This document shows, in pieces, positions 2,269-6,849 of a stretch of DNA of 64,000 bases. A program made the position numbers and the translations under genes. Numbering within the stretch: position 1 is the stretch's first letter; each line of letters starts with the position of its first letter. The notes below the pieces were generated by a model. It had not been told where the DNA came from. It did no database searches and was given only the letters and a program-made list of their open reading frames with translations. The DNA comes from Candidatus Moraniibacteriota bacterium (lineage in GTDB: Bacteria > Patescibacteriota > Minisyncoccia > Moranbacterales > UBA1568), in the NCBI GenBank assembly GCA_023261645.1, contig JAHFOO010000004.1, positions 4,486 to 68,485 of the forward strand. Direction: 5' to 3'.

Positions 2269-4721
2269 GGATAGTACGAATTGAGAAAGTGCTTCGGAGT
2301 ACTTTTTTCTTTTCCAGGGTGTTTTTTTATTGTCTAGAGAAGTGAGTGAAGAGAAAATTTATTTTCACTTCCGAACGATTGACGACATCAAGGAGTCCTA
2401 CTCCTTATTACCGATAATATTGTCAAAGAGTACCAAAGAAATTCTGAAGAAATGTTTGTTACTCTTTTCTTTTTTGTGAAAAGAGCGATACACATTTCCG
2501 CAGAAGTGCCTTAACAATTTATGTCTTTTTCAAAGGGGTCACCGATTGCCTGGCAGCGGAAAGCAATCCGATTTTTTTGAGATAGTCTAAATAATGTATG
2601 TATACCTGCGCACTTTTTATCCAAAGTGCAAGGTAGAAAAGGTCAAGCAAATTCAACGTAGAAAAAACAGTGCGTCGAATGCGCAAACATTCTTCACTGT
2701 TAACCGATTGTCCGTGAGAATTTTCTCTTCTGAGAGAATTTTTGCGGACAAGAGAAAAAAGAAGGTTACTTAACGCATGGTGTGGATGCCTTGACTGAAG
2801 CAAGCGATGAAGGACGTAGGAGGCTGCGATAAGCCTCGGGGAGCTGTCAACCAAGCTTTGATCCGGGGATTTCCGAATGGGGCAACCCTTCCACTTTTTA
2901 GTGGAAAACCGTATCTGAATTCATAGGATACGGTAGCGCACCCTGGGAATTGAAACATCTTAGTACCAGGAGGAAAAGAAATTAATAAAGATTCCGTAAG
3001 TAGTGGCGAGCGAACGCGGAATAGCCTAAACCACCGAGCTTGCTCGTGTGGGGTTGCAGGGCTTGTAGACTCGATTGATCGGGGTCGTCGTATTTCTGTT
3101 AGCAAAATGTTCTGGAAAGAACAACCAAAGAGGGTAATAGTCCCGTATGTGAAAACGAGAATACCACGATGTACAAGTACCTAAGTAGGGCGGGGCCGGA
3201 GAAACCCCGTTTGAATCTGGGAGCACTAACTTCCAAGGCTAAATATTGCTTCAGATCGATAGTGAACTAGTACCGTGAGGGAAAGGTGAAAAGCATCCCG
3301 ATAAGGGAGATGAAATAGAACTGAAACTCCATGCTAACGAAGAGTCGGAGCCTTGTTCAATCAGGGTGACGGCGTGCTTTTTGCAGCACGATCCAACGAG
3401 TTAATTTTACGCGGCTGTCTAAGGGATGATGAGTTCCGGAGACATAGTGAAAGCGAGCCTGAATAGGGCGAAATAAGAGTCGCGTGGATTAGACCCGAAG
3501 CCAGACGAGCTACATATGAGCAGGGTGAAGCGTGGGTAAAACCACGTGGAGGCCCGCACCCACTTGCTGTGCAACTCAAGGGGATGACTTGTGTGTAGGG
3601 GAGAAATTCCAATCGAGTTTGGCAATAGCTGGTTCTCTCTGAAATAGCTTGAGGGCTAGCGTCTTGTAAATTGTACCCGAGGGGTAGAGCTACTGGATGA
3701 GAATTCGCGGCTTGCCGTAGGATTTTCAACCAAACTCCGAATACTCGCGGTATTTACCAAGGCAGTCAGTACTCCGGGGCTAAGCTCGGAGCACAAAAGG
3801 GAAAAAGCCCAGATCGTCAGCTAAGGTCCCAAAATCTGTATTAAGTGGGAAAGGAAGTGAAAACTCTTAGACACTTAGGAGGTTGGCTTAGAAGCAGCAA
3901 TCCTTTAAAGAGTGCGTAATAGCTCACTAATCTAGAGTTTTCGCGCCGACAATGTAACGGGGCTAAAATACAGTACCGAAGCTACGGACTGTATCGCAAG
4001 ATACAGTGGTAAGAGAGCGTTCCGTATGCGCTGAAGCAGAAGGGTGACCGACTGTGGAGCGTACGGAAGTGAGAATGTTGGAATGAGTAACCGCAATGAG
4101 GGTGAGAGCCCCTCACATCGAAAGTCTGAGGTTTCCTGGGCCATGGTGATCATCCCAGGGTTAGTCGGTCCTAAGGCCAGGCTGAAAAGCGTAGTCGATG
4201 GACATCAGGTTAATATTCCTGAACTATTTGTATATTCGAGGGAGAGACGCATCTCTGTACCTCTTGCCCCTTATTGGATTGGGGTTTGGTCTTCGAGGAC
4301 GTCGTACAGGCAAATCCGTACGGCACTAGTCCAATGGAGATTGACGAAGTTTCACCACGGTGAGATGAAGGAGAGGGAGCGGGGTGCCAGGAAAATCTTC
4401 TAAGGTTCGTATACAAATATCCGTACCGCAAACCGACACAGGTAGACTGGGCGAGTAGCCTAAGATGAACGGGAGAGAATTCGTTAAGGAACTCGGCAAA
4501 AAAGCTAGACGTAAGTTCGCAATATGTCTTGCCAACCGCTGAGGTTGGCCGCAGCAAAAGTTTTCCAAGCAACTGTTTATCAAAAACACAAGTCTCTGCA
4601 AACCCGCAAGGGGAAGTATAGGGGCTGACACCTGACCAGTGCTGGAACGTTAACGGGAGCGGTGCAAGCCAATCCCCGAAGCGCCAGTGAACGTCGGCGA
4701 TAACTATAATCGTCCTAAGGT

Positions 4722-4979
4722 TTCGAAACGCTCGCAAGAGAGTTTCGAAAGGACTGGGACGATTGTAGGAAGTGTGATAAATAGAAAAGAAGAGCTGCTT
4801 CGTTCTGTAGTAATATAGAACAGGTCCTAAAAAAATACATGGCCATATGCTGGAAATCTGCTTTGCAGACAATCAGCAGGAAAGATCCTACTTGGTAGGA
4901 AATCCTCAGAGACTATATGCCATGCTCCTATAATAAAATATAGGATGAAGATAGAGTCCTTCGCCGAAAAGGAGCGAAA
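4722..4979 (+). mobile_element. ORF-less insertion (putative group I intron) in 23S between CCUAAGGU and AGCGAAAUUCC (E. coli ~1931 region)
   Basis: ~258 nt with no counterpart in the conserved 23S core; upstream exon ends in U as expected for a group I 5' splice site. Confidence 0.5.
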
Positions 4980-5020
4980 AGCGAAATTCCTTGTCAGGTA
5001 AATTGTCAGAATTGCCTGAA

Positions 5021-5740
5021 TATCGTGGTAACATGATATAAGTAACCCGGCTTATAACGGTGGAGCCTAACACTTGTTGAAACAAGTTATGGTAATACCG
5101 TGGGAAGTCCCCTGAGAGACATTCGAAGGGTGACCCCGTAACGACTGATGCGAAAGCAGAGGCCCCCGCCTATTGCGCGGAGGCAACACGCCGGCTCTTA
5201 TCTAACCCAAAAGAAACATATGGATTTTGCCTCTTACATTTCCGGTTTTGTAGATGGTGAAGGATGCTTTAGTGTATCTTTTACTCTTCGTGCAAAACTG
5301 AAGACAGGAATAGAGGTTCGACCGAGTTTTTCGATCGGACAGAATAAGCGCAGTCTGAAGCTGTTACAAGAAATAGAACAGTTTTTCCGATGCGGGAGTA
5401 TACGCTTTTCGTCACGTGATAATTGCTATAAGTATGAAACACGCGATATAAGCGAGCTCATGCGGAAAATTATTCCGCATTTCGAAAAATTCCCTCTTCA
5501 GTCAGATAAAGCGAGAGATTTCAAAATTTTTCGTGATATATGCAAAGAGATATCTACTGCAAAACATCTCAATCCAGAGCATTTGAGACAGATTATTCAT
5601 CTGGCTTATCAAATGAATGGGTCGGGAAAGAGGAAATATCCGGAAGCAGAACTCCTACGTGTTCTGGATAAGATGAAGATATAGTCTAATGAAGCGTGAA
5701 AACGTGAGATAATATAAATGAAGTTCTGACGCGCATGAAA
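5021..5740 (+). mobile_element. group I-type intron in 23S (E. coli ~1951 region, CACGAAU|GGCGUAAUGA) carrying a LAGLIDADG homing endonuclease ORF
   Basis: ~720-nt insertion; flanking exon sequence restores ...CCTGAAT|GGTGTAATGA matching the conserved 23S; boundaries +/-5 nt. Confidence 0.6.
5220..5684 (+). CDS. single-motif LAGLIDADG homing endonuclease encoded inside the 23S intron
   Basis: MDFASYISGFVDGEGCF... LAGLIDADG-type motif, basic C-terminal region; ORF lies wholly inside the rRNA insertion. Confidence 0.8.
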   Translation: MDFASYISGFVDGEGCFSVSFTLRAKLKTGIEVRPSFSIGQNKRSLKLLQEIEQFFRCGSIRFSSRDNCYKYETRDISELMRKIIPHFEKFPLQSDKARDFKIFRDICKEISTAKHLNPEHLRQIIHLAYQMNGSGKRKYPEAELLRVLDKMKI

Positions 5741-6849
5741 GGTGTAATGACTTGGAAACTGTCTCAACGAACATCCCGGTGAAATTGCAATGACGGTAAA
5801 GATGCCGTCGACCTACAGCTAGACGAAAAGACCCCATGGAGCTTTACTATAACTTGGTATTGACTTAAAGTTTTTGCTGCCGAGCATAGGTGGGAGACTA
5901 TGAAGCACCCCTTCTGGGGGGTGTGGAGTCATCACTGGAATACCACTCTGCAGAGATTTTAATTCTAACCCACGGCCGTAATCCGGTCGGGGGACAGTGC
6001 CTGGTGGGTAGTTTGACTGGGGCGGTCGCCTCCTAAAGTGCAACGGAGGCGTTTACAAAGGTTCTCTAGGTCCGGATGGAAATCGGACCGATAGCGCAAA
6101 AGCATAAGAGAGCTTTACTGAAAGACCGATCAGTCGATCAGTTACGAAAGTAGAATTTAGTGAACCGACCATTACTCGTAGGAGTGTGGAAGATCATCAG
6201 ATAAAAGTTACCCTGGGGATAACAGGCTGATCTTGCCCAAGAGTCCATATCGACGGCAAGGTTTGGCACCTCGATGTCGGCTCATCACATCCTGGGGGTG
6301 GAGAAGCTCCCAAGGGTTTGGCTGTTCGCCAATTAAAGTGGTACGTGAGCTGGGTTCAAACCGTCGTGAGACAGGTTGGTTTCCTATCTGCTGTAGGCGT
6401 GTGTTGCTTGAGAGAACTCTTTCCTAGTACGAGAGGACCGGAAAGAACGAACCTCTGGTGTATCTGCTGTTCCGCCAGGAGCATCGCAGAGTAGCTACGT
6501 TCGGGTAGGATAACCGCTGAAAGCATCTAAGCGGGAAGCCAAGCTCAAGATAAGGCAACAGTATCAGTTTACTGATACAAGATTTCCTAGAAGATTACTA
6601 GGTTGATAGGCTGCAGATGTAAGTCCCGAGAGGGATTCAGTCAAGCAGTACTAATAAATTTATTCAACTTTCTTTTTTCTAATCTTGTTTTATTCTCGCA
6701 AGAGAGTAAAGTGAGTTACGGTTAGCAGTGAAGAGTGCTTGAAAATGGGGACACAACAACATTATAAATTAGACGACAATTTGGAGGCCCGCCTGCAACG
6801 CTATGCGTAGCATTGCGGGCAGGGGAATCCAATACATTTTTGAGAGCAG

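Follow-up and report, generated by a model that had tools for sequence, protein, structure and literature searches.

What lengthens the 23S ribosomal RNA (rRNA) gene of a Candidatus Moraniibacteriota bacterium by about 1 kb, and what do the inserted sequences do? The gene lies in a 64,000-nucleotide stretch of contig JAHFOO010000004.1, referred to here as the window, and it does run to some 3.9 kb, as a first-pass annotation of the same letters had it. Its excess over the 2925-position Rfam model is explained by two large insertions relative to Escherichia coli 23S rRNA in a MAFFT alignment, 258 nucleotides (nt) after U1931 (intron 1, site L1931) and 721 nt after U1951 (intron 2, site L1951). 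Intron 2, at 5000-5720, is very probably an IA-type group I intron that splices itself and carries a homing endonuclease gene, placed at L1951 of the single 23S gene of a Moranbacteria-like member of the Candidate Phyla Radiation (CPR). The first-pass annotation had recognized a single intron; the group I intron at L1951 stands, and the second insertion, at 4722-4979, had been overlooked.

The reference for both junctions was the E. coli 23S gene (L001:631-3533, a record one base short of the standard numbering, which was checked on the known U1911/U1915/U1917 and C1962), and E. coli positions 1700-2200 were compared by BLAST with all fetched loci, which carry three-digit labels such as L001. 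Scanning for relatives of the open reading frame (ORF) in intron 2, at one genome per species, gave 80 loci, and 58 of them share the junction GGU^...G^AAGUUC (^, splice site), with a terminal G in 58/58. These 58 L1951 loci come from Patescibacteria, Chloroflexota, Gammaproteobacteria, Actinomycetota, Acidobacteriota, Omnitrophota and others. In the window the junctions read ...CUUGUCAGGU^AAAUUGUCAG... (5') and ...AUAUAAAUG^AAGUUCUGAC... (3'). The E. coli 1951 site proposed earlier therefore holds in the alignments to E. coli and to the homologous loci; the proposed ends, 5021-5740, were about 20 nt off when set against E. coli 23S and the 58 loci. The gene is not split as CACGAAU^GGCGUAAUGA but as GGU^AAGUUC, between T4999 (= U1951) and A5721 (= A1952), and exon CATGAAAGGTGTAATGA at 5734-5750 is unbroken. 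The intron guide region UUGCCUGAAU / TTGCCTGAAT (5012-5021) had apparently been taken for the similar exon GCACGAAU.

Does this insertion fold as a group I intron? P1 to P9 were mapped by hand on the window (Table 1) and pairs were counted in a MAFFT alignment of 56 L1951 introns trimmed of their ORFs. Over 58 pairs in 56 introns, 90.4% of the cells are canonical and double-sided changes occur in 44/58 pairs; with the 3' partners slid by 1-3 columns the canonical share is 36-44%, and with within-column shuffles it is at most 71.6%. The U.G pair at the 5' splice site is present in 56/56 introns, and the guide follows the exon, GUCAGGU being met by GCCUGA, GUCGGGU by GCCCGA and GUCUGGU by GCCAG. 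Pair 4996-5017 covaries with exon nucleotide 1948 (G-C in 42, A-U in 8 and U-A in 3). P7 is invariant over the 56 introns, its G-C pair included. P10 is long and imitates the 5' strand of helix 71 in the rRNA. It covaries in L004 and L006, both close relatives, and is unalignable over distant members. With its P3-P9 core, U.G 5' splice site and terminal G, intron 2 is a canonical group I intron, and the extra hairpins P7.1 and P7.2, which follow P7 and precede the 3' strand of P3, mark it as a subgroup IA type; its homologue at L1951 of Coxiella is assigned to IA3.

The ORF in intron 2 is intact and encodes a 154-residue protein with a single LAGLIDADG motif, as the first-pass annotation had read it. 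Pfam family PF00961 (LAGLIDADG_1) matches it in one stretch, residues 7-108 of 154, at 97.3 bits (E=1.1e-27) against a threshold of 23.1. More than 1387 homologues were found, the best named ones from Candidatus Moranbacteria, and G9, F10, D12, G13, E14 and G15 are invariant in 30 of them. Ratios of nonsynonymous to synonymous substitution rates (dN/dS, Nei-Gojobori) are 0.065 against L004, 0.094 against L005 and 0.12 against L006, and the endonuclease is therefore under purifying selection. Translation probably starts at 5220, where the residues MDFASY are kept in relatives. The last codons, LDKMKI and the stop, double as the 3' strand of P8, J8/7 and the 3' strand of P7, with the stop UAG at 5682-5684, so that this stretch serves RNA and protein together.

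By sequence, the protein matches structures in the PDB that include each half of the two-domain I-OnuI-family enzymes (7e-37) and also the single-motif I-TnaI and I-Vdi141I. An AlphaFold (AF2) model built from 30 homologues has a mean pLDDT of 91.2, and its helices (3-14, 46-56, 77-90) and strands (15-23, 31-40, 60-64, 69-74) make up an alpha-beta-beta-alpha-beta-beta-alpha core. The best PDB folds for this model are those of I-TnaI (TM 0.83/0.87, 37% identity), I-Vdi141I (0.88) and I-CeuI. Like the window protein, I-TnaI (Thermotoga naphthophila 23S L1931, PDB 5gkk) and I-Vdi141I (PDB 3e54) are single-motif enzymes of rRNA introns, at TM 0.83-0.88 and 31-37% identity, but their targets differ (L1931 and archaeal 16S, respectively); the relatives of the window protein at 40% identity or less are those located at L1931. 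The DNA at the insertion site is near-palindromic, GTCAG-GTAAGTT-CTGAC, because it encodes the hairpin of helix 71, and the pseudo-palindrome GTCAG-N7-CTGAC would suit a homodimeric enzyme. The predicted target is the intron-less 23S sequence ...CCTTGTCAGGTAAGTTCTGACGCG... / CCTTGTCAGGTAAGTTCTGACGCGCATG.

We propose a model where the exon end UCAGGU would pair with the guide GCCUGA and set the U.G wobble at the 5' splice site, which an external guanosine, bound at the invariant P7 G-C pair, would attack. G5720 would then replace the guanosine in the pocket while P10 (GUCAGAA with UUCUGAC) holds the 3' exon, and exon joining would restore helix 71. Were both introns lost at colinear sites, the joined exons would read GGU-AGCGAAAUUCCUUGUCAGGU-AAGUUC. 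The endonuclease, acting as a homodimer, would cut intron-less helix-71 DNA, and repair of the break would copy the intron into the cut allele.

The distribution of intron 2 and its relatives bears on this model. The L1951 site is empty in L174 and L175, which have the same lineage-specific variant of helix 71 (GUCAGG...CUGAC) and both carry an L1931 intron, and L212, L213 and L214 have the L1951 intron with an empty L1931 site. ORF-less L1951 introns occur in L062 (260 nt) and L072 (298 nt), and ORF-less or decayed ones also among L068, L073 and L079. Such presence, absence and decay is the pattern of gain, decay and loss expected of a homing element. Together, the purifying selection on the ORF and the empty sites in close relatives support the earlier suggestion that the intron may still be mobile. 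Close relatives (endonuclease 89-92% identical) also have, in their 23S genes, a GIY-YIG ORF upstream and a LAGLIDADG_2 ORF downstream of the L1951 intron (L204:549-812 and 2682-3320; L211:1438-2058), both absent from the window 23S gene.

Several points weigh against intron 2 being a self-splicing, mobile intron. Intron 2 is matched by the Rfam family Intron_gpI (RF00028), the group I search that the first-pass annotation had proposed, at 31.3 bits (E=2.9e-5), short of the gathering score of 50 bits; in the alignment the ORF falls in the P8 loop as inserted sequence, and more inserted sequence separates P7 from the 3' strand of P3. The low score arises because the 465-nt ORF in P8 and the P7.1/P7.2 insert both count as insertions, and the P1-P9 map, likewise proposed earlier, shows a core that folds and covaries. 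There is a longer in-frame ATG at 5148, and no Shine-Dalgarno-like sequence is evident before the ATG at 5220. CPR genomes usually have one 23S copy, and homing therefore needs DNA exchange between cells. We infer the splicing of intron 2, cleavage by its endonuclease and present-day mobility from the features described above, and the purifying selection would fit a maturase role equally well.

This last point opens a second reading, in which the protein is mainly a splicing helper (maturase) or domesticated and intron 2 is fixed and immobile. LAGLIDADG maturases are known, strong purifying selection is compatible with any protein function, and the L1951 intron is common to all near relatives, that is, to those fetched via the protein. 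We nevertheless find this reading improbable. Glu14, the acidic residue of the motif, and its neighbours are invariant, relatives with empty sites exist, and the spread is patchy, many unrelated phyla having this protein family at the same site and a green-algal chloroplast having a member of it. A CPR single-motif enzyme, I-ShaI, was moreover shown to cut its own insertion site (PMC11270868).

It is less credible still that mature 23S rRNA retains intron 2 as an expansion segment, or that the intron is excised without ligation to leave a fragmented rRNA; the sub-gathering Rfam score and the unspliced group I intron reported at L1931 of Simkania would allow for this, but the splicing hallmarks (U.G, covarying guide, P7 G-C, terminal G and P10) are intact over the 56 introns and the insertion breaks the loop of helix 71. 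A group II intron was set aside, there being no reverse transcriptase and no group II match in Rfam.

The reading of intron 2 as a homing group I intron also agrees with what has been described elsewhere, and the earlier remark that this kind of intron is known from CPR bacteria and Coxiella is correct (PMC11270868; PMC1995217). The L1951 intron of Coxiella burnetii (Cbu.L1951) occupies the same site and is 720 nt long with a LAGLIDADG ORF of 157 residues, compared to 721 nt and 154 residues in the window (PMC1995217). Its host is a gammaproteobacterium, and its partner intron lies at L1917, across a 34-nt exon, instead of at L1931, across a 20-nt exon. In a survey of CPR rRNA genes by Tsurumaki et al. 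(2024), 82% of 23S genes had insertions, of which 45% could be recognised as group I introns, with LAGLIDADG_1 ORFs clustered at 1917, 1931, 1952, 2593, 2604 and 2657 (PMC11270868). The 1952 class in that survey shares with intron 2 the host clade, the site, the protein family, the single-domain endonuclease and a group I-like RNA, and I-ShaI is described there as dimerising; P1-P10 mapping and terminal nucleotides are not covered in the accessible part of the survey (PMC11270868). A paper on an Omnitrophota 23S intron concerns L1917 (PMC13153191). A putative LAGLIDADG endonuclease (P0050) of an organelle of the green alga Nephroselmis astigmatica is 62% identical to the window protein over its full length, a link between bacterium and organelle that is typical of rRNA intron endonucleases. 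The L1951 element is thus ordinary for a CPR genome, its class being already described in CPR and Coxiella. The only part of this locus that is possibly new is the unexplained variation in terminal nucleotide and pocket pair among introns at L1931.

What, then, is intron 1? It is the sole group I match in the window above the Rfam gathering score (61.7 bits against 50, at 4802-4974), and pairs of L1931 and L1951 introns around the same 20-nt exon are present in many fetched loci. Its extended P1 is kept in 22/22 family members, the hairpin part of it covarying, as does the P9 hairpin in the family alignment, and the guanosine-pocket pair G4911-C4958 is intact. Intron 1 has no U.G wobble at its 5' splice site, where U4721 pairs with A4750 in a register set by covariation in the 22 members. 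Nor has it a terminal G: provided that the exons line up with those of E. coli and of relatives lacking the intron (GGU^AGCGAAAUUCC), its last nucleotide is A4979, as it is in the identical Logan contigs L002 and L003. Samples SRR11476867 and SRR14366796 contain an identical copy of the locus. A terminal C or U and a U-A pocket pair are found in the nearest relatives of intron 1 (L004, L005, L007). The guide GCCUUAG, which is the usual one, and a terminal G occur in other L1931 introns among the fetched loci. As to P10, there are 3-5 bp of complementarity in an inconsistent register. Identity to the intron at L005:947-1204 is 75-97% over the first ~120 nt of intron 1 (P1-P2) and 57-68% over the remainder. 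The two introns differ in pocket pair and terminal nucleotide, and the contrast may reflect a mosaic from recombination between intron variants.

Other ends for intron 1 were considered and are unlikely. With an end at G4974 (the choice of Rfam) or G4976, a universally conserved stretch would gain 5 or 3 nt, and relatives do not keep the P10 that these ends imply; an end at G4981 would delete A1932-G1933; and moving the 5' splice site to the U1926.G wobble in the 10-bp helix would cost or duplicate 5-7 nt.

There is a precedent for an intron of this kind. In Coxiella, too, the L1951 intron is preceded, at a distance of a few tens of nt, by a group I intron without an ORF, and this upstream intron, Cbu.L1917, reportedly self-splices without a terminal G, going by the title of a 2007 report by Raghavan. 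We consider it quite possible that intron 1, in the same way, self-splices at the colinear junction despite its terminal A and its U-A pair, in which case the ligated product would read GGU-AGCGAAAUU. The core is complete and scores above gathering, the P7 pocket pair is intact, at least nine diverged L1931 introns, mostly with intact endonuclease genes, combine a terminal A with a G-C pocket, and the empty L1931 site in near relatives implies gain or loss. On the other hand, both hallmark nucleotides are absent and no P10 is consistent over the family.

It is almost as possible that the ribozyme of intron 1 no longer splices, the insertion being either tolerated in mature 23S rRNA or removed by host enzymes. 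At L1931 of Simkania negevensis, the same site, a group I intron is reported, in the title of the work, to remain unspliced in 23S rRNA; it contains an ORF (654 nt), unlike intron 1. Such a loss of function would fit the last nucleotide varying (A, C, U or G), the splice-site wobble being absent throughout the subfamily, and the persistence in 23S genes of mini-elements that have no P4-P6 (L095, L118, L137). Yet conservation extends to the rest of the catalytic core, covariation is seen in peripheral helices, and the last nucleotide is stable in diverged clades and tracks the P7 pair, which drift would not give.

To follow that last point, the L1931 family was enlarged by a pattern scan of metagenomes and by contigs with homologues of two endonucleases, namely close homologues of that in the window and homologues of one L1931 endonuclease. 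Of the 120 stretches that AAGGACTGGGACSRTT retrieved from the metagenomes, only 15 were in L1931 context, the others being chance or truncated. The pocket pair was taken as the nucleotide after CUCAGA and its partner, some assignments of the P7 partner or P9 being made by eye. Of these introns, about 32 end in G with a G-C pocket, and 9, intron 1 included, end in A with the same pocket. A terminal C goes with a U-A pocket in 7, and a terminal U with an A-U pocket in 8 (L057, L161, L189, L215, L217, L219, L220, L225) and with a U-A pocket in 1, the U-A loci being L004, L005, L007, L165, L174, L204, L206 and L208. The exception is L235, with a terminal U and a G-C pocket. As a control, 56/56 L1951 introns combine a G-C pocket with a terminal G. 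Most of the variant L1931 introns have intact LAGLIDADG ORFs, and they are therefore not obvious relics. The mini L1931 elements mentioned above (191-211 nt, from metagenomes) retain P1, P2, P3, P7, P8, P9 and a terminal G, are without the entire P4-P6, and sit in otherwise normal 23S genes.

The last nucleotide thus appears to track the P7 pocket pair in the L1931 family. However, the number of independent pocket switches is probably only about two, and the 3' end is closely linked to the P7 strands, so the correlation is suggestive, not proven. It is tempting to speculate that the family comprises natural group I ribozymes with a re-specified nucleotide pocket, in which a terminal U with an A-U pocket would form a classical U.A-U triple, although we regard this as rather unlikely. 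Group I introns are taken to have, without exception, a terminal G and a G-C pair in P7; in this family both are changed, in a correlated manner. Either these L1931 introns stopped splicing, with ribosomes tolerating an insert of 250-850 nt by helices 69-71, or other nucleotides can also serve in group I chemistry. If the variants do splice, some of them would not use guanosine at all, and intron 1, with its terminal A and no U.G, would be the second natural terminal-A class after that of Coxiella.

Table 1. Features of the 23S rRNA gene, its two introns and the adjoining 5S rRNA gene, in window positions
Feature	Position	Strand	Basis or detail
23S rRNA gene	2759-6676	+	3918 nt including two introns; Rfam LSU_rRNA_bacteria 2443 bits, model 1-2925
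23S exons	2759-4721, 4980-4999, 5721-6676	+	MAFFT alignment to E. coli 23S
Exon between introns 1 and 2	4980-4999	+	20 nt = E. coli 1932-1951
Intron 2, group I, L1951	5000-5720	+	721 nt; ORF in P8 loop; ends in G5720
Intron 2 P1	4994-4999 / 5014-5019	+	exon UCAGGU with guide GCCUGA; splice-site wobble U4999.G5014
Intron 2 P10	5005-5011 / 5724-5730	+	guide GUCAGAA with 3' exon UUCUGAC; read off sequence
Intron 2 P2 hairpin, GUAA loop	5020-5039	+	five pairs canonical 49/49, up to 6 pair types
Intron 2 P3	5047-5051 / 5190-5194	+	pair counts
Intron 2 P4	5058-5062 / 5096-5100	+	pair counts
Intron 2 P5/P5a	5066-5092	+	pair counts
Intron 2 P6/P6a	5102-5137	+	pair counts
Intron 2 P7	5143-5147 / 5682-5686	+	invariant G5143-C5686 in 56/56
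Intron 2 P7.1, GAAA loop	5149-5158	+	covaries
Intron 2 P7.2	5162-5184	+	covaries
Intron 2 P8	5196-5203 / 5666-5673	+	
Intron 2 J8/7	5674-5681	+	
Intron 2 P9	5694-5705	+	GCGU-GAAA-ACGU
Homing endonuclease gene	5220-5684	+	154 residues; single LAGLIDADG motif ISGFVDGEG, catalytic Glu14; Pfam
Intron 1, ORF-less group I, L1931	4722-4979	+	258 nt; ends in A4979; Rfam and exon colinearity
Intron 1 extended P1	4708-4764	+	exon AAUCGUCCUA (4708-4717) with UGGGACGAUU (4755-4764), 10 bp
Intron 1 P1 internal loop			conserved; exon AGG against GGAC
Intron 1 helix over 5' splice site	4721-4729 / 4742-4750	+	
Intron 1 P2	4802-4821	+	
Intron 1 P3	4838-4843 / 4919-4924	+	
Intron 1 P4-P6	4848-4904	+	
Intron 1 P7	G4911-U4914 / A4955-C4958	+	bulged A4910, G4909-C4959
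Intron 1 P8	4925-4946	+	
5S rRNA, downstream of 23S	6854-6962	+	Rfam 80.4 bits

For annotation, the coordinates in Table 1 matter in that the true 23S sequence is obtained only when both introns are taken out at the correct bases. Exon identity to a Candidatus Moraniibacteriota metagenome-assembled genome (L004) is 92-96%. By pairwise MAFFT alignment with E. coli, and so approximately, the gene also has an extra insertion of ~49 nt at 3040-3088, after ~281, and a 20-nt deletion of 1711-1730, around window position 4535. Long antisense ORFs inside the gene, such as 4210-4872 (- strand, 220 residues), are mechanical calls and not genes to annotate.

Rfam finds no 16S rRNA in the whole 64-kb window. 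The usual place of tRNA-Ala(UGC) and tRNA-Ile(GAU) is the 16S-23S spacer; here they lie ~32 kb off on the - strand, clustered with two tRNA-Met and a tRNA-Asp (37857-38648). The 23S-5S pair stands alone, flanked by a gene for a TPR protein (5-2122) and an unannotated ORF (7309-8259), the latter followed by an FtsW/RodA gene (8320-9438).

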